From Takakia lepidozioides (lineage: Eukaryota; Plantae; Bryophyta), in contig CM060733.1 in NCBI GenBank assembly GCA_030704615.1, positions 40,920,001 through 40,984,000 on the forward strand: 64,000 nt of DNA, read 5' to 3'. Numbering within the stretch: position 1 is the first letter of the stretch; each line of letters opens with the position of its first letter. The position numbers were made by a program, and so were the translations under genes. The notes below the pieces were generated by a model, which saw only the letters and a list, made by a program, of their open reading frames with translations, was not told the DNA's origin and searched no databases. Positions 811 to 64,000 of the stretch are shown here, in pieces.

Positions 811-2525
811 CCAGAAACTCAAAGAGCAGCACAGTTTGGCAAGTTTCTTTATTGAGGGCAAGTGTAAGCTTTCAACAACATGCATGCAAGCCACTCTGGG
901 CTCTATTGCATTCAATACAATGAGGGACATACAAACATGTCCAAAGTTACAGATGCCAAACAAGCTTTTGCATGACAAGGGCTGCCCCTCTGATCAGCCT
1001 CACCATTAACAGTGACGATTGAATCCAAGTCTCTTAAGCGAGGCATAATTCAGGCCACAGCTTTATACAAAGCGAAATCATCTGATGTAATGCTTCTCTC
1101 TGCCATACTACCTGAGCATGTGCATGAGTTTTTCTGTGACGAAGAGTATTGCACCCTTGCCTTCATTCAGGGAGAGCAGTTTTCTTCTGAAGACCAACAG
1201 GTATTTGATGCCATTGTTTTTGCAAAGAACCATGGATCTGTGTACAAAGAACTCAAGGCAGGAAACAAATCGTGGTATGCCCTGAATTTGGATAGCCTGA
1301 CTACAGCGATAGTTACGAGTGCTTGTGGCATATCCGAAATCTTGAATAAGCTTTGTTGTAATTTTGTGCGTGTCTCAGCTAAGAACCTCCTGGTATTCCT
1401 CTAGTGGAAGCAAATTGGAGAGGGATATCAACCATCTGTTCATCACTCGTAGTTTTCACTAGAATACAAGCATTTATGAGTCATGCATCATCTTTTTCTC
1501 TACAAGAGCAACTACTTTTGCAGCCAACCAAATTTAACAAGCTAACCTGGCTCAATATCACAACTGTGAGTCATGCTCACTTTCATCTTTTATGGGCTGA
1601 GGGCTTGGTATGCATGGCAGGTTTCCTTTTTTTCTCTCTCTCTCTCTCTCTTACTCTCCCTGTTGTTCCGCTCAAACTGGGCGAGGGGTCTATGGCCACA
1701 AGGCCATGGCAAACAACGTCTTATGAGTACATTCTCTCTCTTACTCTCTTCATGGACGTTGTAAAGCTTCTTCCTTTCTCTCCGCTTCGTCACTTATGGT
1801 ATTCAAATAGTAAAATTGGTTAAAGAGGAACGGTGCAAGACCCCAAATCAAACCTCATGAGAAACCTCCTTCATGAGCACCTTAGCAAAGCCAGAACCTT
1901 CAGCTTTGAGGACCAGAAGTGCTTGTCAGCTTAAATGCACGAAGCACTTCATCTTTGGGCGACATTTGGAGTTTGTAGATGTAGTGTTATTGTTATTCTA
2001 CTTTGTCCGATTGGCCTTTGGGCCTCCTTTATAGACTTCATAAAGTTTTTTTCATGCCTTTTCTTCTCTGTTTGTAGATTGACATTATTTTCCTCACTGA
2101 TTAAATGTTTGTTATTGGCAAGCCACTCTGACTAGCATGGATTAATTATATTGCACCAAATTGTGTTGCTGTTACACATGTCATTACCTTGTAGCCATGT
2201 ACCCCTTGGATGTCTCCCGATTGCATGACAGAAGTTGCTATAGCAACGACATCCCAATGGGTGTACTCTGAAGGGTCTTAAAACACGAATGTGACCATGG
2301 ATGTGTAATAGGTTTTGAATCATTACCATTGTGATGCTACACAAAGAGATTGACAGCAGCTGACTGTTATAGACTCCAGCATTAGCGTGGTTTGGACAGC
2401 TCTCTATGGCTGATGACCCTGTAAAGCATGCCAGCAGTATGGTCTAGAAAGATGTAAGAAGCATGAGTACAGAGTGCAATAATCTGTGTAACAAGCAAGC
2501 AGTGACGGGGAGCTTGGAAGGGCAG

Positions 2526-5500
2526 ATGGGTGTTCCATTTTGCACATTTGCGGCAGTTGCCTAGTCTGGCCCCTTACATTCCTACATCAAATCCTCAGCT
2601 GCGTGACACTGTTTATGAGGTAATTGTACCCTTCTCTCATTTTTGTGATGGAAGCTTGGTTAGATTCTCAGTGTATTTATGTCAGTCCATTGAGTGAGCC
2701 TTTTTCCATTCCATGAACACAACTGCCCATGCTGCCCACCAATGTCCGGTCTAAACGTTGGATTGAAAGACCAGCCTTAGTTTGGATTCAGGTGGCTGCC
2801 TCACAAGACCTGGTGGACCATGGTTTCACTTGCTCAGACTGCTTATTTTTGGCTTTAATTAGTACTGTTTCAAGGAGTTTGCCTATATTTTTGCAGGTTT
2901 TCTGGTCTGAATTGGGGAGTGACTTGACCTTGTTCCCCAGAGGGTTTTATGGAGATGAATACAGGTAGTGGAGGTGGATGGATGTAACATGTGGAGGGAA
3001 TATGCAGGTCGTGTTAAATGCACTGGTGACAAATCCAGTGTATCATGAGCAGTTGCTATCTACAATTCAGACATGGCCGTCTAATATCTATTCCGTTCCT
3101 ACTATCATTTCAGCCATTCAACTGCAGCTCAGCACAGGGTCCAAGTCTCTCATCTTGAAAGAGGTTAGTGCAAGAGCGTTGGTGTGTGAGGCCACCTCTG
3201 GCTTGTCTGGGTTTGCTGGGAAAATTTTGGAATTTATCGTCAAAGGTTTACCCGTCTTTGGTATCTTCCAATCAGTTTTCAGTTTGAATCATGTGGTGAC
3301 TATTATGGCCACAACCCTGCACCAAGCTAATTTTTTAGTTTTTGTTGGTCTGAAACTGTAAAGTGGAGTTTTGTGAACTGTTCAGGCACTAGCTAAACTG
3401 TACGTGGTGAACAAGCAGTATGACAAGGCTCTTGCCATTTTTGTAGAGGTATGGATTCCATTATCCACTTCAGTAATTTGTTCCTTGCTGTCTCTCAGAG
3501 GACATAATATGCCATTAGTGCACCCAACATATCTAAGAACCTTTTGTGGCTTTCTTTGTCTCATTATTGCTTGTCTTCTAATTAGACTGGCTTCTTGTTT
3601 CATGCATTGTGCAGTGGAGGGCCATCTAAACCTTGTTTGTGGTTGGATTCCTTGTGTCTGGAGAGGACAGCTACAAAAGCCGGATGTGTTTGACTTCATC
3701 CAAGAGCACAATCTACTGACATCTATACATGACAAGGTGCGTGTCTCCATACCTCTCTTCTTACACCTTGTTTGTCAAAAAATAGTGTTGGCTGTCGTGT
3801 ACCTGCTAAAAGATTGAGCTTGGGATTTCTGAACCTGTTCTGGGGGTGGGCGGGGTTTGACTTGGGTAGGTGGTTCAGCTGATGAGACTGGATGGTAAGC
3901 GGGCAGTAACATTGCTGGTACAACAGAGCAACAAGATTGGGGCAGCAGAAGTGGTGGCACAGTTGCAGACTGCTGCCGGTTCAGATGACAAATACAGGCA
4001 ACTCCTACACTTGTATCTTCATGGCTTGTTTGAAAAGGACCCGAACGCTGGCAAAGACTATCATGGCTTGCAGGTTCTTTCTAACTTGTTCTCCAAAAAG
4101 CTATACATGGTGTGGTAGTTACGTAGGTAGATCGTTGTGATGTATATGCTATGAGAGTAGGCAACAACAATGCCATGAGATACGCAGTTACTCAGAGTGA
4201 TGAGAATTGAAGACCCTTTCTACAGAGCTGCCAATGTACACTTATTATGCAGTGTTCTGTTCTCTTTATGGGGAGAGAGAAATGTACTCTTCAGAGTTTG
4301 TCATAGTTGGTGACGGGATTAATGTTGGCTACATTTTGGAAATTTGTTGCAGGTGGAACTATATGCAGACTATGAACCAAGACTGCTTCTTCCATTTTTA
4401 CGCAGTAGCCATCACTATTCTCTGGACCAGGTTACACCCGACTCGGTTTATTGGAGTTATTACATTCCTGCATGTGACATCTAGAGCTTTATGAATGAGT
4501 GGATTTGAAAAGATGGCTGTTCTCTTGTCCATCTCAGAACAACATAAGTTGGTCTATTCAATTTGAACAGTCATAGACCCTCTGCAGAAATGTGCATGTG
4601 CCTCGCATTTTCTGTGCTATTTGACCTTTTGGCTACAAATGGGCTCTTGACCATGTTTAATCTCTTAGTGTGGTGGTATGCAGGCTTATGAGGTTTGCAC
4701 CAAAAGGGGTTTGACAAGAGAGAGGGTTTTTATTCTGGGACGGATGGGCAACAGTAGAGAGGCACTGGCTGTCATCATTAACGAATTGCAGGACATGGAG
4801 CAGGTATGGATTGCTGTGATTAAAAGCCTTTGACTCCACTCAGTGTTGTTTGACATTTGCTTATCAACCCTCAAAGAAGATTGTATTTTGCAGCTGGCAG
4901 TGGCAATCTGGCTGTGCTTTACTTGGTGGAGTGACCTCAGTGGTGTTCATTACATTACAAACGAAGGGTTCTTGCAGATAAGCAGTGTAACACATGGGTA
5001 AGTTTGGCAGGCAATAAGCTTTGTGAATGCACAAGCTGACGAGGAGCTGTGGGAGGAACTCATCAACCAAAGCTTGCACAAGCCAGAAATGGTATTGTCT
5101 TGAATCATGTTCGTTGAGGGCTTTGCTGTTTCTTGACCTTAGTATCTCCCCATGATATATAGATCCTTTTTGAGTTTCATGCACTTCAAAGGTTTTGAAG
5201 CAACATTCAAGATCCCTCTCTATGTAATTGTGCATTTGTGACAAGCCAGTTATTTGCATTTGGCCTGGTCAGCCACCCAACCCCTATATTGGTAGTGAGA
5301 ACTGCATGTGGAGACTCCATATTGCAGCTCAGAAGTGAAGTCTGTAGAGAGGAATATAGAAAGACACCTTAAGTGTTTTGTTTTGAAATGACCATATCTT
5401 AGATGCCCGGAATCAGTGAGAAAAGCCTACAGATGTCCTATAGTGCTAAATCCATTTTGATTTGTGTCAATCGTGGCATTGATCATTTTGCACCAATTTG

Positions 5501-6571
5501 GCGAGCTTGTCAGCGTGACTGAAGTTTTAAATTGCAGGTGGGCTCATTGCTGGAACACACAGTTGGGCACATCGATCCCCTACATCTTGTCAACAAAGTT
5601 CCTGTTGGGATGCCCATTCCACAGTACGTCTCTCCTTGTACTCTGAAGAGGTTTATGGCATTACACACATGTGCTTTCAAGCTGCAAAAGCAAACGTCTC
5701 ATAATATTTGGTTCAGGGTGCATGACTTTGTGAGGCTAATGAGGAAATGTCTTGTTGTTGTTGCAGTTTGCGTAATCGTTTGGTCAAAATTATAACTGAT
5801 TATAGGACAGAGACTTCACTCCGGCTTGGGTGCAAGGAAATTCTCAAGGTGGTAGGCCTGCCACCACTTTTGTCGATTTGTCCTTGGATACCTTCAACAT
5901 CTGTAGGCTTATCTTGCAGCTCACATCTTACTGCAGGGTTCTTTTTACCATTTTGGCCTTCGTATACCTTTTTGAACTGCGTCTTTGGTCCGAGATTTGT
6001 GATCACATCTTTGACTTGTGGAAAAAATCAACAGGCGGATTGTGTAGACTTGCTGGTCCGCTACTACGACGAGGCCCGCCATGCCATTCGTGTAGGTGGT
6101 GCTGCTGTTGATACCAATGAGCGCGACCAATCTGGTGCCAATGGAGGTGAAATCTTATCAAGTGATATAGCAGGCACAAGCAGAGGGGTGGTGAAGAGTG
6201 GGAGGATGCCCCCCAACATTGGTGGGAGTGGACGATGTTGTATTTGTCTAGATTCTGTGGCATTGCAAAATGTTGCAGTGGTAGCCTTCTTCTGCTCACA
6301 TGCCTACCATGAAACGTGCCTTAATGACACACCAGGGATCTCGAGTTCTAGACAAGAGTCCACTGTGAGAAGAGTGGAGGGGATTATGCTTGACAACACA
6401 TCCAGCTTGACAGAAAATGGTGGGGATAATTCGGGTGCAGCACCCATGCGTTGCATTTTATGTACCACCGCAGCTTCGGCCAAACAAAGGCCTGAAGCCA
6501 ACAGTAATGGTAGAAAGTCTGTGACTAACAGAACAAGCTCTGGTTGGAGCTTGTCTGGAGAAGTTACATAG
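2526..6571 (+). CDS. VPS41: Vacuolar protein sorting 41 (HOPS subunit), 3' part; exons 2526-2619, 3008-3163, 3386-3448, 3671-3736, 3870-4073, 4353-4430, 4684-4803, 5011-5091, 5538-5623, 5767-5848, 6035-6571
   Basis: GT-AG exons splice in frame to WVFHFAHLRQLPSLAPYIP...VELYADYEPRLLLPFLRSS...RVFILGRMGN...LLEHTVGHIDP...RLVKIITDYRTETSLR and a C-terminal RING-H2 (CCICLD..FFCSHAYHETC); the 5' exons lie outside the window. Confidence 0.95.
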
Positions 6572-35160: not shown

Positions 35161-35204
35161 CCATTCGGCCGTCGGATAGTTTACACGTGTATGATGTACA
35201 CGAG

Positions 35205-36130
35205 GCGGTGTTACAGAGGGTTACATGGTGGTGAGGGTTACAAAGGGTCAAAGAGGGTTACATGGGTTATAGAGGGTTACATGGAGTGAGGGTTACATAA
35301 GGGGTGAGGGCGACACTCTGCGGTGTTACAGAGGGTTACATAGGTTACAGAGCCACAGAGGGTTTGTGAGGGTTACATGGAGTGAGGGTTACATGGTGGC
35401 GAGGGTGACACTCTGCGGCGTTACAGAGGGTTACATGGTGGTAAGGGTTACACCTGGTGAGGGATATAGAGGGTCACAGAGGGTTACATGGGTTACAGGG
35501 TTATATGGGTTACAGGGTTACATGGGTTGCAAAGTGTTACAGAGGGTTACATGTAGTGAGGGTTACATAGGGGTGGGGGTGACACTCTGCGGTGTTATAG
35601 AGGGTTACATGGGTTACAGAGGGTTACATGGTGGTGAGGGTTACAGAGGGTCATGGGGTTATATGGATTACAGAGGGTTACATGTAGTGAGGGTTACATA
35701 GGGGTGGGGGTGACACTCTGCGGTGTTATAGAGGGTTACATGGGTTACAGAGGGTTACATGGTGGTGAGGGTTACAGAGGGTTACATGGTGGTGAGGGTT
35801 ACAGAGGGTCATGGGGTTATATGGATTACAGAGGGTTACATGGTGGTGTGGGTTACACTCGGCGGAGTTACAGAGGGTTACATGGGGGTGATGGTTGAAC
35901 CCGGGGCGGGGGTTACATGGAACTGGTGGACTGCTGGAAGCGGCGGACTGAACGATGACGCAGGGGCGACGACGCCGATGGGATGAGGGCGGGGGTGGGG
36001 AGGGATTGACCGAGCCCAGCCGGCTGCCTTTCGATGTCTGCCGGAGGCGAAGAACCGGCGGTACGGGTGTCAGGGCTGGACCGTCTTGACGCGCTTGCAT
36101 TAAGTTCTTACATTATTCCTATTATCTTCC
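35205..36130 (+). repeat. Right TIR of the MULE (GGGTTACA array plus terminus)
   Basis: Near-identical to ~11745-12797; followed by the TSD ATTCAGGCC. Confidence 0.9.
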
Positions 36131-45585: not shown

Positions 45586-46935
45586 TCATTGCAATAACCT
45601 CCACCCCCACGAGTCCACAGTATTTGGGCGCTGTGCCAGCAAGTTCCTCAAACTCAGCTTCATGGTCTTTGCATCATACACTTGGAAATCATCAGCATCC
45701 TCTGAGGTTTGCACCCAAGGATATGGAGGTAAGACATCCACTACCCCGGTCGATATGTAATACCTCCTTATCTGGCCTGTATACATGCTCACTAGTACGA
45801 TGGAGTTGCACACCCCATTGAAGTCAACACAAGGAAATCCACGTGCAGCATAGATGTAGATGTCAGGATCAGGGCTCCCAAAAATTTGTTGAAGCTGAGC
45901 TTGAGTAAGTTGGAGCACTGGCTTTCTACCATTCTCAGCAATCAGAACCTCATACACTTCAAACAATGTCTCTGGGTAGTTCTGGTTGGTCTGGAACAAT
46001 GACTCCGAGTTGGGACAATGGAGCTCGGAAGGAAGAGGAATTATTCTGCAACTGGGATGCTCTAACCACAGAATCATATACAAGCGATTGTTGCTCACAA
46101 CAAGTTCTTGATTTTCAACATCCCTGGTAAATCTCATTCGCCAAACTTCCGCCCATGTACCTTCCTGAGGTTTGTAGCTAAGAATCCCAACCTGATCAAA
46201 TTCGAAGTCATGATTGGAGTGGTTGCTTACAAACACCGTCTGATGCAAGACAACGGCTGACGATGCCCACAGCCCCTCAACCCCGTTCGGCAGATTTCTC
46301 TGTCCCCGCCATTCATTAGTGAAAGATTCATGTATGTACACCCTAGGTAGAGAAACTACTCTTGGAGTTTCACAAAGGTTGTTTAAGAGGACAACCTTGT
46401 AGCTACGAGTGGCATTATCCACAACGGTAACTAAATGAGGCTTAGCACCACGAGTAGCGTAGAATTCAGGTGGGCCTGGCAGCATCCTCCTCGTCTTCGC
46501 AACTGGGTCGGAGAGAGTAAAAGCAAAATTGTTGTCCGTGCCTCGTAATGAAGTCAGTTCGCAAACAAGGCCGTCGTCCATAGCCATGAACCGAGTCTCA
46601 ACCGCATTGCCACAAGCACAAACCCTAGGAAGCTTAATAGTCTCGATAGAATACCATCGACGTGTATCCAGGTCAAGAAAGCTCATCGTCGATACGAAAC
46701 TATGCTCAATACCGCGAATCGTCCTGATCCACATGAACAAGTACACATTGTTTTTCCCGTTTAGGTCACAGAGGTCGTGAAAACTTGGCCTGCCAATGAG
46801 CTCCTTCCATGTCTTGCAGACTGACCGCATTCTGCACAAAACGGGCACAGGCAAGAAGGACAGCACGCGCTCGATGATCTCAACCGGGAGCTTGCCACAG
46901 ATGCCTCTCTCTGAATCCATGGTGTCCTGTGGCAT
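45586..46935 (-). CDS. F-box protein with a putative beta-propeller/FBA-like C-terminus
   Basis: Uninterrupted ~449 aa ORF with LPVEIIERVLSFLPVPVLCRMRSVCKTWKELI, MAMDDGLVC and SYKVV. Confidence 0.9.
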   Translation of the reverse strand: MPQDTMDSERGICGKLPVEIIERVLSFLPVPVLCRMRSVCKTWKELIGRPSFHDLCDLNGKNNVYLFMWIRTIRGIEHSFVSTMSFLDLDTRRWYSIETIKLPRVCACGNAVETRFMAMDDGLVCELTSLRGTDNNFAFTLSDPVAKTRRMLPGPPEFYATRGAKPHLVTVVDNATRSYKVVLLNNLCETPRVVSLPRVYIHESFTNEWRGQRNLPNGVEGLWASSAVVLHQTVFVSNHSNHDFEFDQVGILSYKPQEGTWAEVWRMRFTRDVENQELVVSNNRLYMILWLEHPSCRIIPLPSELHCPNSESLFQTNQNYPETLFEVYEVLIAENGRKPVLQLTQAQLQQIFGSPDPDIYIYAARGFPCVDFNGVCNSIVLVSMYTGQIRRYYISTGVVDVLPPYPWVQTSEDADDFQVYDAKTMKLSLRNLLAQRPNTVDSWGWRLLQ

Positions 46936-47794
46936 TTCAGAACACAAGCAAAATAGCGTGAAATCAAAACAACACTTCTACAGGTGCCCAACAATTCAAT
47001 ATGTAGTACAGTAGTTGATGCAAGTAAAATCGATGCACAGGAAAGTATCAACAAGAGGCGATGCGCTATCTTATTAGAAGCATGCAGCTGGAACTCTAGA
47101 CGTAATAAGAAAGTGATTGCAAACCTACACACTTGTACTACCGAAGCAAAAGCCATGTATGTACACTTGTGCATGTAACCTTCGCATTGAACCCCTCAGG
47201 TTTCGGTCTTCGACTTTCACAATCATGTGGCATACTATCCATTTCAGTACCGTGACCTGACTTGGCTCTTCTCTATGGAAGAATAGTTTATTGACGAGGC
47301 TAAGACAGAACATGTTCTGAGGACGTGTGTGATTGTGGATCCAATCACAACTGCACGAGGACTGTGGGCCATAACCCCAGCTCAACTTATGTTATCATGG
47401 TATTGCCAATTTTGTGACACTGCAGTCATCGTGTGGGCAGAGCTACACGCTCTGCTCATTTCAAGCGAAGCATTTCATAGGCGAGGCATTTGATGTCTGG
47501 CAGTTTGCAGATGGTAGCAAGGCACATTGAATAATTTGAATGTGCATTGTGGACTTGTGCAGCGTCACGACTTCTTGACTGCTGCAACTATCAACGATCC
47601 CTATATTATTCAAGAACTAAAAATTATAAGACAGGCCAATACGCCAGTACCTCATTCTAACCTTTCCTAGAAGTTCCAACCGTGTACAGGAACTTATCAC
47701 TTCCATTAAACTGGAATAACTAATCACATGGAACCTGACTTCTGCATCCAGAATCTCTGCCACATGAGGATTCCAGCTCCAACTCTTTAAATGC

Positions 47795-48345
47795 CTAACC
47801 CATCAGCACTCCAATCGCTGCAACTGTATTTATTCCTGCTGCCAGCACCTGCTTGCTCCCATAGTGGTGCTTAATGTTGGTTTTGCACAAGTATGCAAAT
47901 GTTTCGCAGTTGTTCTTACCAAGTGAATATTCCCCCAAGCTGTCTTCTCTGAGTAACTCCCTGGCGCACTTCACGACCGTCTCCCCATCTTCGCATTTTT
48001 CGGTGGTGCCTCCGAGGTTGATGGCCGACGCAGGGGACAAGTGTTTGCCGTATTGGATCGAAGCGGTAGAGGGACAAAGGACTCGATCGAGGCAGCACAT
48101 GCCAACTCCTGGTCTAGCATGCGTGGTGGTGTCCCCGTGATGATCGCACACATCCTTGTTGCCTGGGCCCTGTGTGAGATGAAACGTGGGAGAAGTGGAT
48201 CAACAGGGTGGTTGGCGTGGTAGATGGTGGTGGTAGCACGGCGTGGTGCTGCGGTCACTGCCCATGTGTTGCCCTCCATGCAGCTCCTCTGTCGTCACCT
48301 TGTTCGGGCTACGTTTGAATAGTTGCAGTGGAGGGCGGGAAAGCG
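47795..48345 (-). pseudogene. LRAT/NC-domain (NlpC/P60 fold) gene, degraded
   Basis: GVGMCCLD..VVKCARELL..GEYSLGKNNCETFAYLCKT; the N-terminal PNKVTTEELHGG.H..YHH is out of frame. Confidence 0.75.
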
Positions 48346-50835: not shown

Positions 50836-51325
50836 CTTCAAACTTCTTAAATCCTTCAAACTGAAGGCAAAGCAATTTCTATAAGCCCTTAGAAATCGCT
50901 GGATCCTTCGTCTCTCTTCTCCGGTGACTGTAGGTCCAACATTTGGTTCCCAATTGTACTCAGTGACTGCAACCTTGGGTACACCAGGCTTGGAGGTAGG
51001 AGACGCATCATTTGATTGCTAGATAGCAACCTCTTGGGCCTTGTCCGCCCACCCAGACTGTGGCATAGCCTCCACTTGCTCCGCCATAGCCACCTTGACA
51101 ACATCATCAACAAAAGAAACATCCTCAACCTCTTCAAGAGCCTTCACTACAGGAAAAGTGGGGGGTTTTCGACGCCGCGGCGTCGTAAAACAGCCCTTTT
51201 TGGACGGGGAAAAAACCAAATTTGTGACGTCCAGGCGTCTCAAGCCCGTCGCCAAAAAAACGTCGCAAATTTGCGACCAATAGGGGTCGCAAATATGCGA
51301 AACCGCGATTTGCGACGCCCGGGCG

Positions 51326-51359
<34 letters not shown>

Positions 51360-52774
51360 TGCAATAAGGAATTAGCACCGTCCAGGGGTCGCATAGTGCG
51401 ACGCCCGGACGTCACAATTTAAAGGGGTACATTTGAATTTAGGCGGGAAAATTTGAATTTGAATTTTGAATTTCAAAAACTTGTTGACCATTGACTTCAG
51501 CGTTGACCATTGACTCTGGTTTGTCTAATGGCGATATGTTCATTGTTTTACATATATCATGTAACACATACTTGAACCTAAGACCTCCACGTTATAACAA
51601 TTCTAAGACACTACAAACTAACAACACAAAACATACGCTACATCTATGTATCACAAAAGCAATTTATATATATATACATATAAAGAGTTCTTCTAAGGGG
51701 GTCTCTCTTGTGTACGCCGAGGAGTTGCAACCTCCACAGCCTTCGTGCCCAGCCCCAGCCCCAGCTCCAGCATCGTCGCCGTTGTTGTACACCCCCACTG
51801 TCAGGCGCCCCAAGCGACGTCCTTGTGTGGATCTAAACTGACCACAACACCATTGCGACCCCCTGACGTCGCCAACGTTGGGCGTCCCCAGCGCGGGCGC
51901 CCCCAACGACTTTTGTGAAGTTGAGGGCCGCAAAGCCCAAAAAAAAAAAAAAAAAAAAAACTCTCACTGTGTGATGCTGTTGCGACGCCCTGATGTCGCA
52001 GAGGCGCTGGGCGCCCTTAGTGACGCTTTGCGACGCCGAGGCGTCGCAACGTTTTTTTTTTTTTTTTTTTCCGACGCCGAGACGTCGCAAGAACAAAAAT
52101 CCGTCGCAGCGCGAGGGCCCTCTTTCCCCTTCATGCCACCTTACGACAGCTGGGCGTCGTAATGGTGTTGCAGGGGGGATTGCGACGCGGAAATCGCAAA
52201 AAAACGCCGCGGGCTCGGCGTCGCGGGCTCCGCGCCGCGCGGGGGTGGGGGCGCGCCTGGCGTCGCAAACCCCCCCCCATTTGTTGTAGTGCTTGGCCAC
52301 CTTGGCCTCCAACTGATCCTCCGTGTATGGCTTTCCCCACTCCTCATATTGCTCCTTGAGAGATCCAATGACTCTCTCTTTCCGCATCTCATCCCACATC
52401 TACCATGGATGTTTGTACTCCATGATCATGTACTCGCCCCCACTCACTGCCTCCACCGTCCCGGTTGGCAGAGAGGGTGCAATATCCAATGGAAGTGCAT
52501 AAGTAACCACCAATGCTTGCAATCTCCGTTGCTCAGCCATGCACAAGCCAATGACCCATGTCAAGCAATTGAGATCCATTGTCTGACCCAACACCTGGCG
52601 TCGTGATGCCTCTGACAGAGCTAGCACAGCTATAGTGCTCGTGGCAAACCCCATTGTCCGCTCTCATTCATCCGCACTAGGCTCCACCAATTGTTGTAGC
52701 GCATTTTCCCAAATCAACCCTGGACCATTGTCTCGAAAAGCATGAGACGAGGGAAAACTCATTAGTGTAGGCAG
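50836..52774 (-). pseudogene. DNMT retrotransposon: methyltransferase C-terminus (motifs IX-X) plus pre-RT linker, inverted relative to the N-part
   Basis: LPTLMSFPSSHAFRDNGPGLIW..EPSADE*ERTMGF..SEASRRQVLGQTMDLNCL..; reads across the CACTA insert to RRIQRFLRAYRNCFAFSLKDL, a Gypsy pre-RT-like segment. Confidence 0.75.
51145..52291. mobile_element. Non-autonomous CACTA element
   Basis: CACTACA...TGTAGTG termini, 3-bp TSD CTT, GCGACG subterminal repeats. Confidence 0.92.
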
Positions 52775-52975
52775 TTACTTCTATGGTGAGGCTGGGTTGA
52801 TGACCAGCAGACCATAGGAGTGTTTGCGGTGGATGCAGGTGCAGGTATAGGTCTACGTTAGAAACCTATTATTCCTGCTTGAACCACTAGCCGCAACAGG
52901 TTCTCTACCCGGTTACCTTGTGGAAAGTGGGGATTAGAGACAGGTTGACAACTAGTTGGGTTGTGAGTTTTCATC

Positions 52976-54890
52976 GTGGAGGTGCCACCAGTTACTGAGG
53001 GGAGTGCCGGTACGAGCACCGGCGATACTAGTGGGTACACAAGACAAGGTGTGTGGTTTAGGCCACCTTCACCTTCAGTATTTTCTGATGAAGGTTCAGA
53101 CTCGGAGTCGGGAGGATTCTCGCCGACTCGGGTGCAAGTCATTTCCGTGCCATTGTTGTGGGACATGATGGAGGAGATGTATGGAGCTACCAAGGGGCCA
53201 CGTAGGTACTCTGGAGCTGTGGGCACCATCGAGCTTGATGATTTCATATAAGAGTTTGACAGTTGGTGTGATTTGCAGCAAATGCGCAATCCACAAATGT
53301 TTACGCTCTTTATGGTGTGGAAGGGGCTATTCAGCACCTTGAGGGGCCGCCCATGGAGATTACCATGATTTAGGCGGGGACATGCGGTGGAGATTGAGGA
53401 GTGACGAGAGTATTGGTCACCTAATTATGTCTCTATCACTAGAGCCATAAGGGCAGCGGCGACACCAACAGCTACACAAACATCTCCAACTGCAAGCACT
53501 AGTAGTGGGACAAGTGGTACAAGAGCTCGGAAATCCACTCAAGCTCCTGCTGCAGCACCAACACTTGTGCCTGCCTTTAACCCAGTTGTGGAGTTCTTCG
53601 AGGAGTTGAGGAGAAACTACCAAGGGATAAAGACAGAGAAGTTGCGGAGTTTGCAAGAGTTCCAACGAAGGCCTACTGAGAGTTTGAGGGAGGCTTACAA
53701 TCGCATCAGGTGCTTGATTAATGTAAACCAAGGGGTTACAGAAGCTCAGGTAGTCCAGTTCTGGTATGGGATCCTGGACAAGGAGTTGAGGAAAAGGGTG
53801 CGGGATGCAACTCTTCTACAAGTAGCCCAACCCACCTTAACAAATGTGGTTTTGCTGGCAGAGCGGATAGAACTCAATATGGTGGAGGAGCAGGTGGTTA
53901 TGGTGGGATTTGGCAAGGAGACCAATGCCAGTGGGTGGTGCTGCAAAGCAAGGTGCAGCCAGTACATTGTTGGGGGCGGCTACGGCTGTTTGTCAAGCTC
54001 CATTATTTTCTGCAATGACATTTGCAATGCCGGGGATTCGGCCAGCTGCTGTGTTCAGACTAACAGCTAGACTCTGTGAAAGTGGTGATGCATCGGCACT
54101 ATCTGCGGAGATAGCAGATAAGGTGCAGTCTATGGATGCTTTGGATTCGAGGATGAAGTCAGCCACAGCTACGCCATGACAAGCGGCAGCTGCAAGGTTG
54201 CAGAAGTTGCCAGCTAGGCCAGCCATTGAGCACAACATGGTGACTCCTGGAATAGTCCTAGTGGACAATCAGGATGAAGTGTTTCCGGGAGGAGGTATAT
54301 GCCACTGCGGGTCTTGTTGAACTCGGGAGCACAGCCTTTGATGTTGGGGAGAGCAGCAATTGCAGGCTTGGGCCTTACAAATGCGGACTTGGAGCCTTGC
54401 CCTTTTCAAATTCAAACATCTTTGGGTGGTTCAGAGAAGGCGCGAGGGATTACACGCCATGAGCTCTTCATTCGATTGCAGCCGGATCATCCTACGGACG
54501 ACTCAGTCATGAGAGCTAAAGCCATTGTAACGGATGCGATGTCCTATGATGTGCTTGTTGGTGGGGCTGTGTTGTACCCCATGGGATTTACTCTGGACTT
54601 TTGGGAGGAAACGACATCCTACAGGCCGGAGTGACAGTCAGGGGATGGGCGACGTGCACTGCTCCCAGTGCGGTTTATTAGGAATGTAGCGGTGGATCAT
54701 TGATGCCCACATTGGTTGCATTCTCAGGGGTTGTGGCTTGGGGTGGTGAGCTCTTGGAGGGAAATAGTTATGCAGATGATAGGCCACCATTTGATGAAGA
54801 CAAACAACTGGCATACAAGGTTGAGTTGCTTCCTCATGTGCCTGTTCATATTCTACTGTGGGTTACGGTTGGGAATTTGCATTGAGTAGC
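52976..54890 (+). pseudogene. DNMT retrotransposon gag and aspartic protease (degraded)
   Basis: Retrotrans-gag-like EFFEELRRNY..LQEFQRRPTESLREAYNRI; protease VLLNSGAQP..YDVLVG; the frame continues across the TSD at 61838. Confidence 0.75.
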
Positions 54891-54895
54891 AGACG

Positions 54896-57800
54896 TGGGC
54901 AGGGGGTCGGGACACATGAGGGGCTGCCCCTGTGGTGGGGGCAGCGGCAGCGATAGGTATGGGGGGCTGAGGCACCCTTGAGTGCCCAAGGCACTCAGGG
55001 AAGCGGAGGCGCTCACTAGGTGGAGCCCCGCACACCAGGTTGCGGTGGGGTGGCTCCACAAGGGGTGGTGGTAGCTTAGTGGGACTTAGTGGGGGTGGCA
55101 TAGGACTCACCATGGGGGCGGAGACCTCGTGGTGGGAGTCGTGGGGAGTCTTGGGACTCATCACGGTCCATAGGGGCCGTGGTGAGCGGGCCAAGACTCA
55201 CCGCGACTCACCACCGGGAATCGAGGGTCTTCGTGGTGGTTCGCCATAAAATGGCATGGCTGGTTGTGAAACCCCCGCGGACAGCTACAGAAGTATATAT
55301 AGGGAGTAGTAGTAACCCCAAGAACGGTGCAAGCCCGTTGGTGACCAAAAACTAGTGAGTAAGCGAGCGAGCCGGAAAGCGACCAAAGAGTGGGGAGCTG
55401 TTCCGAACTGCCATCTACCAAAGAGAATTCTCCTAGTCCCAATTAGGTGGAGGGTTTTAGAGGGAAGCGAAAGGGGACCGTTATGTCCCGTGAGCAGCCG
55501 AAGCTCCAAGTTGGCCCGGCGGCCAGGTTGGGAGTCAGGCGCGCGCAAAGCGAGTAACTATGACTTGAAGGGGGGTTTACCGAAGTGAGGTGCGCGACAC
55601 TTGGTATCAGAGCTTAGAGTTCAGTACGCGATCGTCCTTGGGATTGGCCTCATCATGGGGTCGGGCAAGCCGAAGCGAAAGCGGAACGGCCCAAAAGATG
55701 ATGATCCCGGTGAGCCCGATGGGGGCGGCGTGTCACCGAGGCGGCCGTTTGAGGAAGCGATGCATGTTTCCGAAAACGAGGCCGCCCAAGAGCGGGAGGA
55801 ATCCGAGGAGTTGGAGCCCGAGGAATCCTGAGTGCTCCGACAAACCAAGAGATGCCTCCCATGCCGGCAGCCTTTTGGGAAGGGTTGTTGGCGCAGTTTG
55901 GCGGGACGTTGAAAGACATGTTGAAGGCGGCTAATGCCACTTCCACTAAGGCAAAGTTTCAGGTGAAGCCTAAGGAACCCGGCACCTTCGAGGGCGTCCG
56001 AAATCAGAAGGCACTCAACACCTGGCTCTTGGAGCTGGAGCAGTACTTCCGGGCGGCCAAATTGAGTGACGAGGATCGCGTGGAAGTGGCTCCCACCTAT
56101 TTGAGGGGCTATGCTCAACAATGGTGGCAGAACGCCTTCACGACCGAGGTCCAAGTCCGGAAACCTTGAACTGGAGTGGGTTCAAGGAATTGTTGAAGAG
56201 ACAGTTTGTGCCCCTCAACGCGTCCTGGCTTGCCCGGACAAGATGAGGAATTTGAAGCAAACAGATGACATTCGGGGGTACGTCCAGGCTTTCAATGTGC
56301 TGTTGCTCGAAGTCGCGGACATGGCAGAACCAGAAATGGTCTTCAACTTTGTGGCGGGACTGGCCCCATGGGCCAGGCGGAAGTTGGAGGAGAAGCCACC
56401 CAAGACTTTGAACGAGGCAATTGAGAGGGCTGAATGTTTCTCGGATGTCCCTAGGGGTGAAAGACAAGGTCGTACGGAGCTGAACCACAAGAAGATCGGC
56501 GGAAGGTGACTCCTTCCGACCGGAAAAGAAGTGGGATAGGCCACGCGGCGATAATGGCACGTGGAAATCGAAGGGAGGGCCTTCACACGTCAAGGCGGCA
56601 CTCGGTGCTCCGAAAGGAAAAGCGGGTGGAGCGGCTTATGGCGGATAGAAGGCGACCTTTGATGGAGTGTGTTTCAATTGCAGGGAGCCCGGGCACATGG
56701 CCAAGAAGTGCACGAAGCCCCGGCAATTGAACATGACTCGGGCGACCACGGAGCTGTCGGAAGATACCATCAGTCGCTTGGTGGAAGCGGTGGTCGCCAG
56801 GACTTGCAAGGTAGGCAAATTTTCTTGTGAGTTGTATCAGGAAACTGGCGCCTTACGAAAAGGGAGTCAGTTATTGTTCGTGGATGGGATAATATCTGGA
56901 ACTAATGTGTCGTTGTTGGTGGACACAGGAGCGTCACACTCCTTCATGACACCGGCAACGGCACAAAAGCTGGGACTCCCGACAAGTGACGTGGGGGCCT
57001 CTATTGAGGTGCGTTCTGCCAAAGGAGAACCACAGTTGGTGACAAGGTTGACGATAGATGTTCCTCTTCAACTGGGGAGTTGGGAGGGACGTGAAACTTC
57101 ACCATCTGCGAGATCGATGGAGTAGATCTCATTTTAGGGATGACCTTTTTGAGCAAATCCAGAGCGGTCATAGATGGCCGCAAGAGAGTAGTCACGCTGC
57201 CATGTGGGAATGGTGGCAAGGTCTTACGAGTGTCGGAAACGCCCAAATCCGTGGGAGGGCGAATAAACCTTCTGTCAGCAAGGGGGTGGGCCGTGGAGGA
57301 GGCACACGAACCCCAGTTCTTGCTTTACATTAGAGAAGTGAAGGGAGAAGGCGATGGGGAGCCGAGCCCAGATTGGATCAAGGGGATTTTGGAGAAATAC
57401 CAGGATGTGATGCCGGAGGAATTACCAAGCGCTTGCCACCGCGAAGAGGAGTTGACCACAAGATTGAGGTGATACCGGGATCGGAACCGCCTGCCAAGGC
57501 GCCCTACCGGTTGAGCCACAGAGAGTTGGTTGAGCTGAAGACTCAGCTCAAGGATCTAATGTCAAAGGGGTACATCCGGCCGAGTAAGTCACCTTACGGA
57601 GCCCCGGTGCTATTTGCAGACAAGAAGGATGGGACGCTGCGGATGTGTGTCGATTACAGGGCTCTGAATAAGGTGACTATAAAAAACCGGTACCCTTTGC
57701 CAAGGATCGACGACCTCTTCGATCGGTGGCAGGAGCGAAGTATTTCAGCCGGATCGACTTGCGCTCCGGCTATCACCAAATTCGGGTGGCGGAAGGAGAT

Positions 57801-60800
57801 GAGGAGAAGACCGCATGCAGGACAAGGTATGGTTCATATGAGTTCTTGGTGATGCCTTTTGGGCTCACCAATGCACCAGCGACATTTAGCACGCTGATGA
57901 ACAGCCTTTTCCAGGAGTGGTTGGATGACTTTGTGATCGTGTACATCGACGAAATCTTGGTGTACTCGAAAACAAAGGAGGAGCACCTGGAGCACCTCAA
58001 AAGGGTGTTCCAAAAATTGCGAGAAGGGAAGCTGTATGCCAAAGCTTCAAAGTGCGAATTCGGGGTCACAAAAGTGGAGTTCTGGGGCATGTGATTACAC
58101 AGGATGGGATCAAAATGGATGACAGAAAGGTGAGGGCGATCTTGGACTGGGAGCCTCCGACTTCGGTCCCGGGAGTGCGATCCTTCCTAGGACTCGCCTC
58201 CTATTACCGGAAGTATGTGAGAAATTTCGCCAAGATCGCAGGGCCGCTGTCGGACCTTCTGTGTAAATCCAAAGTCTGGGTATGGAACACATTTTGTGGC
58301 CAAGCTTTTGCTGAATTGAAGCAGCGGATGACGGAAGCTCCAGTCTTGAAAATCCCGGAGTTCGATCGTCCGTTTGAGATTCATACAGATGCATCGGACT
58401 TCGCGATTGGGGGTGTACTTATGCAAGATGGACGTCCAGTGGCTTACGAAAGTAAGAAACTGAATGAAATGGAGCGACGGTGGCCGACGCACGAAAAAGA
58501 GATGAAGGCGGTGGTGCATTGCCTTGAGCTCTGGCGCCACTATGTTGGTTCCAACCCAGTGAAGGTATTCACGGACAATGTCACGGTGAAGTATTTTGCC
58601 ACGCAGCCCAAGTTGTCCCCAAAACAACTTAGGTGGCAAGATACTTTGGCAGTGTTCGACGTGGATATCCAGTACAAACCGGGACGGGACAATGTGGTGG
58701 CCGATGCTTTAAGTAGAAAGCAGCAGCTCTTGTTGGTGTACAAGGGCGAGACGGCACTCCAAAGGAAGATCCGGAAGGCTTGCCGGAAGGATGAGCTGAC
58801 GAAGTCCGTGATGCAGGACTTGAGGATGGGGATTAAATCGCAGTTCCACTTGCAAAATGGACTGCTCCGGTATAAGCAAAAGCGTCTCTACGTGCCGAAG
58901 GGAGGGATCAGGGATAGTCTCTTGAGAGAATGCCATGATAGCCCGCTTGCGGGCCACGGTGGAGCCAAGCGCACTGCGGCACTCTTGAAGAAAGAGTATT
59001 TCTGGCCCAAACTGAGGGAAGAGGCAGAGGAGTATGTCAAGACATGCACCACATGCCAACAAAACCAGAGCGAGTACAAAAAGCAAGCGGGGCTGTTACA
59101 ACCCTTGCCGATCCCAGAGGGGACTTGGGAAAGCGTCTCGATGGATTTCATGTGCTATGCCGCTGTCAAAAGGATTCGATGCAATCATGGTGGTGGTAGA
59201 TAGGTTCAGTAAAATGGGCCATTTCATCCCCACCAAGGAGACGGCAACGGCGCAGGAGACAGGGCGACTTTACTTCGCCCACGTCTTAAAGCATCATGGA
59301 GTCCCGAAGGATATTGTCTCGGACCGCGATCCAAAGTTTACGAGTAAATTCTGGAGAGCACTTTGGAAGAAGATGGGGACGAGGCTGAAGATGAGCACCG
59401 CCTTCCGACCTACGACGGATGGCCAAACGGAAAGAGTGAATTCCGTAGTGAAGCAATTCTTGCGGAATTACGTGTCGGCAGACCAATCAGACTGGATGGA
59501 ACACTTAGACGCGGCAGAGTTCTGTATAATAACACAGAACACTCCGCAACGGGAGTTTCCCCTTTTGTGTTGGTCTATGGAAAAGCACCTCTGGTGCCGA
59601 CAAGTTGGGCCGCCCAGGACGTTGAGGAACCGGCAGTAGCGGCGGTACTGGAAGAACGCGAGCGTTTGTTGAAGCTCGCAAAGTACAATAGTGCCAAAGC
59701 TAAGAAACGGTATGAAAGGCAGGCAAATCGGAAGTGGAGGGAAGTGAAGTTTGAGGCAGGCACAGAGGTCTGGTTGAACATCAAGAATTTCCGACTACCT
59801 CCGGAAGTGAGTCCGAAGTTCGTGCCTCCGTATGCGGGGCCCTTTCGCATTCGGAAGGTTATGAATGAGGATGTGTATGAATTGGAGCTGCCGGCAAACA
59901 GCAAGGTGCACCCAGTATTCCATGTCTCCCTTTTGAAACCTTACTTCAAAGATGAAGCGCGTCCGAATCGGCATCAAGTGTTGCGTCCGCGCACCTATGC
60001 TGTTGGATCATGAAAATGAACCTGAGTACGAGGTGGAGGCAATACTTAAGTCGAGGAGGTTCAGGAACCGAGAAACGGAGTATCTCGTCAAATGGAAGGG
60101 CTATCATCATGTGGAGGCATCTTGGGTGCGTGCCTCAAAAATGGGAAACGCATCCGAGGCGGTTGCAGCTTTCGAAGGGCGACCTCAAAAGCGGAAGAAG
60201 CGTTGATGGGGACATCACCTTGGAGCGTGGGGGAGGAAATGCATGCTTAGCCCGGTTTAGCTAGCTCAGGAATCCGATTGCAAAAACTTGTATTGTACAA
60301 AAATTTGTTATAAAGGAAATGGGTTCCAAATATTGTACGTCCTATTGTGTTTGGAATGGTGATGCATGGTGTGGTTGGCTAGTGTGTAGAATGCATGCTA
60401 GCTTACAAAAGTGGGAGAGGTAAATTGGGTAATCGTGTATTTGCGCAGTGCCGAAATCGGGTGACTCCCATCCAAGGGGCAAGGAAACTTGCGCCTTCTT
60501 TGGGAGTTCACGTGCTAGTGCGCACCTGGCGCGTGCGCGTACTATAACTGCGCTACCGAGGGGGTTGCCTTGTAGTGCGGGCTAACGCGGAAGCTACGTG
60601 CTTTCGTTCACGTACTATAATCGTGTAGCCTCGGGACGAAGTCGTAGTGCGGCTTCGGCGTGTTCCCGCACCTCAGGCCAGCATTCCAAGACGGACCCAA
60701 TTGTAGTGATTGGGGCGCACGGTTGGTTCAAGGTTATCTTCCTAGTCAAAGAGGATTCCAGGTGAACCCTTGCTCAAGGTGATGCCAAAAGCGGCATCAT

Positions 60801-61837
60801 GAGCGATCGCAAGCAATGTTGTTGCAGTAAGGCGATTCGATCCTCGGGGAGGATCGTTCCTTGGCCTTGAAGTAGGCCAAGAAGAGTGCACTGGGAGGAG
60901 CTGGAGAGGCTCCACCCTTGGCCGGGACTTGGAGGAAGTCGGCCGAACTAGCTAGTGGAGAGTAGAGTCAAGTGTGGGGTTTGGTTCTTTGCCATGGGAC
61001 CGCCATGGTACAGAAACAAACTCCTTGATGTGGGACGCCACAACTTGGATGTTCGTTTCTACAAAATGGACAAGTCGATGAGGACATCGACTCCCTGTTG
61101 GTAGGGGTGTGTGTCGCGGCCCTTTGCCTTGAGGGCAGGGGGTCGGGACACATGAGGGGCTGCCCCTGTGGTGGGGGCAGCGGCAGCGATAGGTATGGGG
61201 GGCTGAGGCACCCTTGAGTGCCCAAGGCACTCAGGGAAGCGGAGGCGCTCACTAGGTGGAGCCCCGCACACCGGGTTGCGGTGGGGGTGGCTCCACAAGG
61301 GGTGGTGGTAGCTTAGTGGGACTTAGTGGGGGTGGCATAGGACTCACCATGGGGGCGGAGACCTCGTGGTGGGAGTCGTGGGGAGTCTTGGGACTCATCA
61401 CGGTCCATAGGGGCCGTGGTGAGCGGGCCAAGACTCACCGCGACTCACCACCGGGAATCGAGGGTCTTCGTGGTGGTTCGCCATAAAATGGCATGGCTGG
61501 TTGTGAAACCCCCGCGGACAGCTACAGAAGTATATATAGGGAGTAGTAACCCCGAGAACGGTGCAAGCCCGTTGGTGACCAAAAACTAGTGAGTAAGCGA
61601 GCGAGCCGGAAAGCGACCAAAGAGTGGGGAGCTGTTCCGAACTGCCATCTACCAAAGGGAATTCTCCTAGTCCCAATTAGGTGGAGGGTTTTAGAGGGAA
61701 GCGAAAGGGGACCGTTATGTCCCGGTGAGCAGCCGAAGCTCCAAGTTGGCCCGGCGGCCAGGTTGGGAGTCAGGCGCGCGCATCAAAGCGAGTAACTATG
61801 ACTTGAAGGGGAGTTTACCGAAGTGAGGTGCGCGACA
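54896..61837 (+). mobile_element. Ty3/Gypsy chromovirus, near full-length
   Basis: TSD AGACG; 5' LTR 54896-55599; PBS TGGTATCAGAGC 55602-55613 (tRNA-iMet); PPT 60229-60239; 3' LTR 60240-61837. Confidence 0.95.
55852..60206 (+). pseudogene. Chromovirus gag-pol (gag, CCHC knuckle, PR, RT, RNase H, integrase, chromodomain), frameshifted
   Basis: [87 protein letters not shown]. Confidence 0.92.
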
Positions 61838-61842
61838 AGACG

Positions 61843-62633
61843 AGTGTGTGCACCAAACATGGCATGAGGCCTTTCCATTGATGAATGAGGGAGTTCAGTG
61901 ACATCACCTGGATCTCCTCAGTTAGCTCATTTGGACACAGTGCCCATTACCTGGCAACCACCTGACTCAGGGATTTGTTTGCTAGACTTGTTTAGAGGCA
62001 TGAACATTGGGCTTGCATGAGTGTTGCAAGCTGGGATTAAAGTACAAATATACTTGTATGTGGAGAAGGATGAGATAGCTTGGCATATTTCCATGTGCCA
62101 TGTGCGTTGCCTTGCTCACACACCAGTATCCTGAGTTGCTGCCTCTCTCAGCAATTCAAGGGTACCAAAAGGCCTTGCCAACAAACATTACCTTGCTGGG
62201 GGCGGATGATTTGGGCCGGCATGGTCCAATTGACTCGGTGATAGCTGGATGGCCTTGCCAAGGACACTCTCCCGCAGGTCATGGGAATGGCTTGCATGAT
62301 GCAAGGTCGCATTTGTTTTGGGAGATGTTACGAGTGTTGCGTGACTTGCAGGTGAGGCAAGTGCAACCTCCAGCTTACATCCTGGAAAATGTTCATCTCA
62401 TGGGGGATTCTCGGGCCAGGGTTATGGCTAGGGTGCATCAGGTGCGGTCTTGGATTGGACCAGCTGTATTATTGGATGCAGTTGCAGTGGGTTCAAGGGC
62501 ACATAGGCCTAGGTTGTGGTGGACCAATTTTGCACCACCAGAGTTGCTAAAGAGAGCCTATGATTCCATTCAACGGCCACCCAACCTCACAGTTGAGGGC
62601 ATTTTGGACCAAGGGAGGCAACCACAGAGAGTG
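61843..62633 (+). pseudogene. C5 cytosine DNA methyltransferase domain (motifs I-VIII) of the retrotransposon
   Basis: ICLLDLFRGMNIG (I), YVEKD (II), IAGWPCQGHS (IV), YILENV (VI), GSRAHRPRLWW (VIII). Confidence 0.88.
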
Positions 62634-63100
62634 TGTTAGAGGACTATAGGGGACTTAGACACTTATACGGGATCTGTAGGGTACCCTTAATTTTTGCACA
62701 GACTGAGACCAACAGGAGCCTTAGGGGTGACAGCAGCGCACTGTAGAGGGGGGTTACACAGTCGTCACAGCCCACACAGCCAACACAGCCCGTCACAGTC
62801 GTCACAGCAGACACAGCCGATACAGCCACACAGCCAGTCACAGCCCGACACAGCCAAACACAGTCGCACAGCCAGTCACAGCCCGTCACAGTTTCGCACA
62901 GCCAGTCACAGCCCGTCACAGTTTCACACAGCCAGTCACAGCTTGACACAGTGGTCACATCATAGGGAACGAAGAGTAGGACAGGGAACGACTGTGGGGA
63001 ACAACACCTGCGAAGGGAACATGTTAGTTCACAGACAACGGTTAGCGAGGGAAACGGTTAGAACCGCGGAGAGGAAGATAAAGGGAGAAACGGGGAGATG
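62634..63100 (-). mobile_element. LTR-like fragment with GTCACAGCC minisatellite
   Basis: Starts TGTTAGA exactly where the DNMT breaks; tandem CAGCC(A/C)GTCACA units at 62755-62960. Confidence 0.45.
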
Positions 63101-63104
63101 AGGA

Positions 63105-64000
63105 TTATTTATTCGGAGGAGGACTTCTTAGTCAGGCTGGAGCGGAGATCGGAAGCAAAAGATGGAGAGTACGGTGAAGGATTGTTATATGCAAAGCTGT
63201 AGTGATATTGTAGAGCAGATTAGAGACATAATGGCTTCGGCCTGATACCTGATAAATCATAATCTGATACTTATACGATACAATCACACTGTGTAGAGAG
63301 ATCTGAGTGAAGCTGTGGATTGAATGGATGAGTGAAGGAAACCGATAGATTGATGAAGCAAACTGATACTTAATTATCAATGGTAAGGTAGCTAAGATGA
63401 ATGCGGAAAGGAAACAAATAGGAAACACCCCCATGATACACTAGCTGTAGGTCATGACTGATTGTTCTGCGCGGGCTGAGTACTTAGAGATTTCCAACTC
63501 TTCTATCTTGGAGTTTCCGCCTCGGATAGCGAAGGGATGGGTGAGTAAAAGCCGCGCGACATTTGGCGACCATACTGGGGACCTGGGACATGAACAACCA
63601 GATGTGACAGGCATCTGGTGGGATCATGGTGGTTGGACCATTAAAGAATTTGAAGTGAATCAAATTCCCTGTGGAACGAAGGAAGAAAGATTGTCCAAAC
63701 AATTCTTTCAAAGGTTCTTGGAATTGCCAGACGGTTGTAAAGAAAATATTCTTAAACGAGTGCATGATGCTGATCCAGAATGGGGTCTGGAGAAAGGAGT
63801 GATAAAGATTTATCAGGTAGCCTGTAGAGGAAGAGCACGTTGGTTACCAACATTGGTATATGTGATAGCATTGCTATCCATTAAACGAGTAGAGTTTGAA
63901 GGCTGGGAAGAAAGAAAGGTGAATGTTTATACTCATATGCATGAAGAGCTTGTACTGGTAAAGAATTGGATTCCAAAGGATATTTTGTGGATCAAACTCA
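63105..64000 (-). mobile_element. Probable degraded LINE 3' region
   Basis: Minus-strand AATAAAATAA tail near 63105 and weak LINE C-terminal resemblance. Confidence 0.3.

Follow-up and report, generated by a model that had tools for sequence, protein, structure and literature searches.

We describe a family of Gypsy-type retrotransposons in bryophytes that carries a DNMT3-type DNA methyltransferase (DNMT) domain between the protease and the reverse transcriptase (RT). One copy lies at positions 50836–62633 of a 64,000-nucleotide stretch of Takakia lepidozioides contig CM060733.1, which we refer to as the window. A sequence-only reading of the window had proposed the order gag-protease-DNMT-RT for this copy and had placed the element in a land plant. 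Both proposals hold: the order is found in 17 of 35 related loci, in the Marchantia proteins P0005 and P0007, and in the Closterium protein P0214, and the host gene Vps41 groups with mosses (100/98). The family, rather than the window's poor copy, is the finding.

Why a transposon should carry the class of enzyme with which its host silences transposons has been a puzzle since 2018, and the sole Gypsy example was algal, with a yeast assay that failed. Relatives in Marchantia make the question testable, as methylomes and methyltransferase mutants exist for this plant. Given the spread over green algae and bryophytes, what was reported as a lineage-specific capture becomes a likely very old trait. 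This spread is also relevant to the relationship between the DNMT3 and DRM genes of plants and the copies that elements carry, and some bryophyte gene models that are labelled as DNA methyltransferases are pieces of transposons.

The methyltransferase domain belongs to a widespread family of elements

With the window's DNMT frame as the query, we found 41 longer proteins; the named ones are from Marchantia polymorpha, Calypogeia fissa, and Sphagnum. Of 35 metagenome loci, 17 show protease, DNMT, and RT in this order on the same strand, and 7 are complete from gag through integrase, but these 35 include near-duplicates, most belong to one family (by two probes, L002 is identical to Sphagnum fallax P0035), and three are weak bacterial-type matches. 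The linkage of the DNMT to the RT is itself solid. The locus L001 is near-intact, and a single frame that is broken by two stops takes in everything from its gag to its integrase.

The full order in the relatives is gag-zinc knuckle-protease-DNMT-stop-RT-RNase H-integrase-PHD. Pfam finds the Gypsy set of protease, RT, RNase H, and DDE integrase on P0136 and P0288, and the protease match on algal relatives is Asp_protease_2. A PHD-like cysteine pattern can be seen by eye downstream of the integrase in L002 and L011.

A profile search returned 473 clusters at 50% identity (E below 1e-30). Among 190 proteins, the DNMT domain lies before the RT in 6, after the RT in 62, and between RNase H and integrase in 58. 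The named carriers of the DNMT-before-RT order are Closterium, Marchantia, and Sphagnum, and Klebsormidium GAQ93235.1 reads gag-zinc knuckle-protease-DNMT and ends 27 amino acids past motif X. The DNMT-after-RNase-H order has Scenedesmus, Chromochloris, Haematococcus, and Cymbomonas as its named carriers.

We built two trees from these elements, both as quick searches with support from the Shimodaira-Hasegawa-like approximate likelihood ratio test (SH-aLRT) only. The RT-RNase H tree (35 rows), in which the sole outside RT is that of a chromovirus nested in the window copy, splits the two orders (22 rows at 98 and 12 rows at 82). The DNMT tree (61 rows) holds element domains only, with no host DNMT3, DRM, MET1, or CMT, and leaves out L035 for its low coverage. 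In this tree, the window's domain groups with Marchantia, Calypogeia, and moss-like loci in a clade of 12 rows (99). This bryophyte clade meets the Klebsormidium row, the Closterium group, and the chlorophyte group at an open fork. Within the bryophytes, the window's domain falls outside the group of liverwort and Sphagnum-like domains, which means that several old families or horizontal transfers are involved.

Among viral contigs, a scan gave no relative. The named matches include no protein from Physcomitrium, hornworts, ferns, or seed plants, which is weak evidence of absence because the searches were word-limited. As for the host, the Vps41 exons in the window have 72% identity to Sphagnum, and in a tree of 15 rows this Vps41 lies with the mosses and outside Sphagnum plus Physcomitrium (92/93). 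The host is a moss, and its branch is perhaps an early one.

Some of the relatives have features of their own. In a large chlorophyte group (P0030, P0032, P0034, P0088, P0095, P0249, P0283, and others), the DNMT3-type domain sits between RNase H and integrase and a PHD finger follows; our literature searches found no paper on this group. Five polyproteins of the chlorophyte type (P0034, P0036, P0078, P0118, and P0160) have an extra C-terminal domain with DPWAG-like motifs and, in two of them, also SPP/APP-like motifs. These motifs may point to an amino-methyltransferase, so that two methyltransferases per element are possible. In P0187, the same DNMT domain stands behind a copia-type gag (Retrotran_gag_2, E 1.6e-17), which hints at a move of the domain into a different superfamily of retrotransposons.

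The domain is of the DNMT3 type and is under purifying selection

When a natural relative was compared by sequence with the PDB, the first 29 rows were DNMT3A, DNMT3B, or DNMT3C (best E 1.7e-7). Other classes score worse: HaeIII (0.036), DNMT2 (0.055), HhaI (0.036 or worse), and 4onj (0.043), which we take to be of the plant DRM type. A predicted model of P0001 (predicted local distance difference test score 92) has DNMT3A/3B as its best fold match (E 4.5e-19; template modelling score 0.84 by target). The motifs run in the order I, IV, VI, VIII, IX, X, which is unpermuted. By sequence and by predicted fold, the domain is of the DNMT3 type.

In 44 aligned domains, which were chosen by profile similarity and are biased towards intact motifs, the catalytic cysteine and the motif VI glutamate are both invariant (44/44), and the motif VIII arginines are kept in 42 and, for the last of them, in all 44. 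Under strict patterns, 24 of 31 loci have motif VI and 12 of 31 have motif VIII; the presence of motif IV in 31 of 31 is uninformative because this motif was part of the scan patterns.

The ratio of nonsynonymous to synonymous substitution rates (dN/dS) of the DNMT is 0.15–0.20 for five between-family pairs, in which dS is near saturation (the remaining pairs are saturated), and 0.16 for the window copy against L001. The corresponding values for RT are 0.05–0.10. In the Sphagnum-like family, DNMT and RT are under equal constraint (dN/dS about 0.54 and 0.52). The DNMT is under purifying selection.

CpG stands at 0.40 in the window copy and at 0.27 in the near-intact L001, where CHG is undepleted, versus 0.84 in the younger nested element; the chromovirus control, which came from L013, takes in part of the DNMT element. 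In the Sphagnum-like family, CpG is at 0.54–0.56 and CHG is equally lost (0.60–0.62). Across the families, CpG depletion gives no consistent footprint of self-methylation.

A conserved stop codon separates the methyltransferase from the reverse transcriptase

About 100 codons past motif X, there is a stop codon at the same place in 21 of 22 loci, which represent few independent families and include near-duplicates. This stop is always followed by CAA, and the RT frame continues in phase after it. The 22nd locus has two stops three to four codons upstream instead. Within the DNMT, no stop that is due to decay is shared by more than 3 of 10 loci. The Marchantia and Calypogeia proteins end 98–100 amino acids past motif X.

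A known pattern for read-through is CARYYA. According to PMC2754532, read-through in plants at a stop with flanking CAA amounts to 6–32% in the context from tobacco mosaic virus, and is lower for UAA than for UAG. As far as the sequences indicate, the stop is likely leaky: the enzyme would end a Gag-protease protein, and the RT would be made by read-through.

Split end repeats suggest an unusual route of integration

The ends of the Sphagnum-like family consist of two parts, A and B. L011 has the layout A1, internal part, purine tract, B1, GC, A2, AT, B2, with AAGG at both flanks. L014 has CACA at both flanks, L002 reads A1...B1-A2 up to the end of the contig, and L020 and L022 terminate after B. 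The split repeats are complete in L011 and partial in L002, L014, and L017, and both of the loci that have both ends show 4-bp duplications (2/2). Taken together, B plus A resembles an ordinary long terminal repeat (LTR): the first bases of B, behind the purine tract, are TG, and the last bases of A are CA. The A2|B2 joint, CA-AT-TG, resembles the junction in a two-LTR circle, and the B1|A2 joint is a 16-bp palindrome. A two-LTR circle that is cut at the palindrome would give A...B-A-B, and a one-LTR circle that is cut there would give A...B. The split ends suggest integration unlike that of ordinary LTR elements, and they may be the reason that the family is overlooked by LTR finders.

DIRS and Ngaro elements have a tyrosine recombinase and make no target duplication. 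We considered membership in this group and rejected it, given the rve integrase, the 4-bp duplications, and the lack of a long extra leader frame.

A proposed role for the enzyme, and alternatives

On balance, we favor a model in which a live element packs its DNMT into particles, the protease frees the enzyme, and new complementary DNA (cDNA) is methylated before integration. Most ribosomes would halt after the DNMT and a minority would read through to RT and integrase, which would make the enzyme about as abundant as the capsid. The protease would release it inside the particle, where the new cDNA would be the only DNA, so that new copies would arrive pre-methylated. This might shield them from host surveillance or preset their chromatin state. 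The PHD finger may guide insertion by histone marks. The cDNA would likely circularise, and the integrase would cut the palindrome inside the LTR, giving split ends and 4-bp duplications. In support of an active enzyme, de novo methylation of CG in yeast has been shown for the DNMT3 of a dinoflagellate retrotransposon (PMC5890265).

Several observations weigh against this model. The Klebsormidium enzyme showed no activity in yeast, a result that was called inconclusive there (PMC5890265). The proline before the cysteine in motif IV is kept in 23 of the 44 domains and replaced in 21 relatives, and the selection of these 44 for similarity favors intact motifs. CpG depletion is inconsistent across families, with age as a confounder. 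The conserved stop is TAA in 8 of 21 loci; in the Sphagnum-like family its context is CAACCC, which departs from CARYYA at one place; and P0136, P0214, and P0288 have DNMT and RT in one frame with no such stop. Few independent families lie behind the 22 loci. Finally, split ends are seen in the Sphagnum-like family only and are complete in one locus, and the window copy has no ends.

There are three alternatives for what the domain does. The first, which we consider unlikely, is that the enzyme is active but has its targets in the nucleus rather than in the cDNA of the particle: it would act on the insertion site, sister copies, or the host genome, and damp the activity of the element itself or of its competitors. 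A PHD finger after the integrase would fit an element that reads chromatin, and self-limitation was raised as an option in PMC5890265, but the Gag-protease fusion ahead of the conserved stop places the enzyme in the particle, and an effect in trans would also benefit non-carriers and might be harder to select.

We rank just behind it, as similarly improbable, the idea that the domain is kept for some other job: binding of nucleic acids without methylation, methylation of RNA, or a structural role in the particle. The inactivity of the Klebsormidium enzyme in yeast, the variable proline of motif IV, and the inconsistent CpG depletion would all agree with this. However, the catalytic cysteine, glutamate, and arginines vary hardly or not at all over the range from chlorophytes to mosses, and the fold is that of DNMT3, not of DNMT2.

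A single capture of a DNMT3 or DRM gene from the host, carried since then as a passenger, is very improbable: the DNMT3 class is also present in bryophyte hosts, but the domain has the same position in moss, liverwort, Closterium, and Klebsormidium families, spans the 473 clusters of the profile search, is under purifying selection, is intronless with a motif order that is unpermuted, unlike DRM, and lacks the host companion domain in all of the proteins that we scanned with Pfam (0/25). The sequence-only reading had named the grouping of the domain with a host DNMT gene captured once as one outcome that would overturn it; the presence of the domain across many families and the selection on it contradict such a capture.

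Put together, our broadest proposal is an ancient green-lineage, Gypsy-like clade, reaching from prasinophytes to liverworts and mosses, that has kept a DNMT3 through all of green plant history, shifted it between two positions in the polyprotein, produces as much of it as of capsid by means of a leaky stop, methylates its cDNA in the particle, and inserts by cutting a circle at an LTR palindrome rather than through its linear ends. As a whole, this combination is tentative. If it is true, then a self-methylating, circle-integrating retroelement would be amenable to study in Marchantia.

The copy in the window

We aligned the window with tblastn, mainly to the Marchantia protein P0010 and also to P0005, P0006, P0011, and the Sphagnum protein P0035. 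The blast matches internal to the window had E values of 1e-76 to 1e-79, far above chance. The features are listed in Table 1.

Table 1. Parts of the methyltransferase element and other mapped features in the window
Feature	Positions	Strand	Basis or remark
5' leader remnant	52774..53167	+	Left edge is the inversion/rearrangement joint; contigs of other copies bridge 52782-53052 into gag
gag, capsid part	53168..53989	+	54% to Marchantia P0010 aa 1-273
gag-protease linker	53934..54284	+	tblastn P0006, P0010, 46%
Aspartic protease	54296..54679	+	61% to P0010 aa 630-758
Protease-DNMT spacer, left part	54680..54890	+	tblastn P0006, P0011
AGACG target-site duplication, left copy	54891..54895	+	Sequence
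Nested chromovirus-type Ty3 element	54896..61837	+	LTRs 54896-55599 and 61130-61837, 98.3% alike
AGACG target-site duplication, right copy	61838..61842	+	Sequence
Spacer, then DNMT3-type methyltransferase motifs I to VIII	61843..62633	+	P0010 at 61910-62633, 55-66%
Second LTR-type element, inside the DNMT gene	62634..64000	+	Begins TGTTAG; extends past the window end
DNMT C-terminal part (motifs IX-X) and tail	52292..52773	-	Inverted relative to gag-protease
Non-autonomous CACTA DNA transposon, CTT duplication	51145..52291	.	CACTA termini
Family-wide stop, TAG then CAATCA, ends the Gag-protease-DNMT frame	51019..51021	-	Same place in relatives
Linker and start of the RT-side frame	50836..51144	-	Truncated at 50836 by another repeat
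Host Vps41 exons	2512..6547	+	Tree marker

The sequence-only reading had gag-protease continuing across the AGACG duplication into DNMT motifs, and P0010 is indeed collinear with gag, protease, spacer, and methyltransferase. PF00145 matches the DNMT frame at 62079-62636 (E 3e-12). In the front half of the DNMT, the motif I region starts at about 61970, PCQ is at 62253, and ENV is near 62385. For the span from 52774 to 50836, the earlier assignment was partly right: motifs IX-X and a piece that precedes the RT are there (57% and 53%), but 1.15 kb of the span is the CACTA element. P0010 aa 1109-1245 matches the motif IX-X piece at 52807-52382 (-) with 57% identity, and the RT-side piece at 50970-50833 is 53–57% identical to Marchantia P0005 aa 691-735 and Sphagnum P0035 aa 959-1002. 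Three events had been overlooked: the CACTA element, the second LTR-type insertion at 62634, and the loss from Gag of its zinc-knuckle region (P0010 aa 274-520; the next match is from aa 521).

The copy had also been called dead, and it is. There are three stops in gag within 53168-53932, and the protease has stops as well; its active-site motif is LNSG (LDSG in relatives). A Pfam scan of the window's own protease frame gave no protease match. The front half of the DNMT has a substituted motif I, one stop, and a frameshift near 62104-62106, with PCQ, ENV, and RAHRPR intact; the C-terminal half has two stops within 52292-52774. The RT of the DNMT element is absent from the window, and the RT at 57.4–58.7 kb is that of the nested chromovirus. 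The stop at 51021-51019, however, is conserved and does not count as decay.

Short contigs that we obtained from public runs of the same species confirm the rebuilt order for the family. Contigs from other copies skip both insertions (the empty sites are 54890>61838 for the chromovirus and 51141>52292 for CACTA) and continue the C-terminal half of the DNMT into intact DNMT, and the sequence at 52774-53052 runs on into gag. These contigs place the joint at 52773|52774. Two other placements were rejected: that the DNMT halves abut within three codons near 52830, which the contigs contradict, and that the sequence from 62634 onward is the element's own inverted 5' end, as its start resembles a separate LTR.

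We think it likely that both DNMT halves in the window come from one inverted copy. The halves are complementary and do not overlap (P0010 aa up to 1099, and from about 1121), and they diverge from other copies to a similar degree. A possible, less favored explanation is that the gag-protease-DNMT front (+) and the DNMT end (-) are two head-to-head copies or an assembly error; with two copies, the true 3' part of the first would lie beyond the second LTR-type element, outside the window. This would account for about 21 codons between the halves that are present in neither piece, and for a front half that stops at the LTR insertion with no joint to the element's own 5' end; also, among the contigs listed, none crosses the window's joint at near identity. 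Separately, in L014 (12407-13303) and L017 (4923-5819), RNase H breaks off into an inverted 468-base gag piece and parts of the end repeat, an internal inversion of the window's kind in further members of the family.

In the host, the family is clearly abundant. In run X1, contig depth summed over gag and DNMT is 1e5 to 5e5 versus 60–90 for single contigs, although this sum is no copy number. Among the differences from other copies that are listed, 29 of 43 are of the C-to-T type (7 CG, 10 CHG, and 12 CHH), and these reflect ordinary decay only.

Neighboring features

The nested chromovirus matches Pfam Ty3_capsid, Asp_protease_2, RVT_1, RT_RNaseH, rve, and Chromo; it is frameshifted and DNMT-free. 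The starts of its two LTRs (54896 and 61130) differ, with TGGGCAGG versus TGAGGGCAGG, and its best purine tract, at about 60228-60240, is some 900 bases upstream of the 3' LTR. The second LTR-type element is present in very high copy, with contig depth far above that of the DNMT. Its LTR has a stretch of tandem repeats and ends in GCGCGACA, and the LTR of the nested chromovirus ends alike. The frame at 63451-63999 has no Pfam match, and the TGG motif at 63564 is, we presume, like a primer site.

Repeat arrays of the GGGTTACA type occur in both orientations at 11400-15100, 17100-19700, 31700-32000, and 35200-35950, and they surround long frames at 15949-16794, 20574-21803, and 22385-24483. The arrays likely mark the ends, and the frames the genes, of large DNA transposons. 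A single-exon frame at 45586-46977 (-) resembles, by eye, an F-box protein, and the frame at 47795-48199 (-) has an LRAT domain (Pfam E 2e-5).

Comparison with known systems

In literature searches that left subscription journals mostly outside, we found no land-plant report of a DNMT-bearing retrotransposon. The parts considered of PMC11244446, PMC11982613, PMC6317226, PMC8566409, PMC10952607, and bioRxiv 2021.02.12.428880 mention no such land-plant elements, and the words methyltransferase, methylase, PHD, and Marchantia are absent from the main text of PMC6317226. The survey in PMC5890265 covers Physcomitrella; Marchantia is absent from its main text and three supplementary files, and Iyer et al. 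are cited there for links between DNMT and RT. PMC12344493 describes such domains in "streptophytes and dinoflagellates," and its per-species table and figures may include bryophyte elements.

The DNMT3 of moss and liverwort hosts (Yaari and colleagues 2019, via PMC8566409 and PMC10952607) likewise has an unpermuted DNMT3-class domain. By description, the host protein stands alone, has a plant companion domain (PMC12344493), and makes CHH methylation, whereas the element's domain is fused to Gag and protease. Plant Ty3 lineages in REXdb, such as Phygy and Selgy, have the same Gag, protease, RT, RNase H, integrase order and a 4-bp duplication (PMC6317226). Phygy favors NCGN sites, and the duplications here are AAGG and CACA.

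SymbioDIRS-Dnmt3 of Symbiodinium, whose CG de novo activity was seen in yeast, likewise has a DNMT3 in a retrotransposon polyprotein (PMC5890265). This is a dinoflagellate DIRS element, unlike the elements here with their rve DDE integrase and target duplications, and a Symbiodinium protein is only a distant match (E 4.5e-9).

The closest known system is KnitGypsy-Dnmt3 of Klebsormidium nitens (PMC5890265). Both have an intronless DNMT3-type domain in a Gypsy polyprotein that is under purifying selection, and KnitGypsy-Dnmt3 is described as having DIRS-like repeats with Gypsy domains, which the split-end layout of the Sphagnum-like relatives matches. The passages on KnitGypsy-Dnmt3 make no mention of a conserved stop, a PHD finger, or 4-bp duplications. 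The acquisition was placed in the K. nitens lineage, whereas we find relatives in Cymbomonas, Scenedesmus, Chromochloris, Haematococcus, Closterium, Marchantia, Calypogeia, and Sphagnum; the DNMT tree neither shows nor excludes that the family descends from the Klebsormidium lineage. The host here, unlike that of KnitGypsy-Dnmt3, is a land plant. What is likely new, then, is that a land plant has an element of the KnitGypsy-Dnmt3 type, one whose layout likely relies on read-through and whose insertion is likely circle-based.

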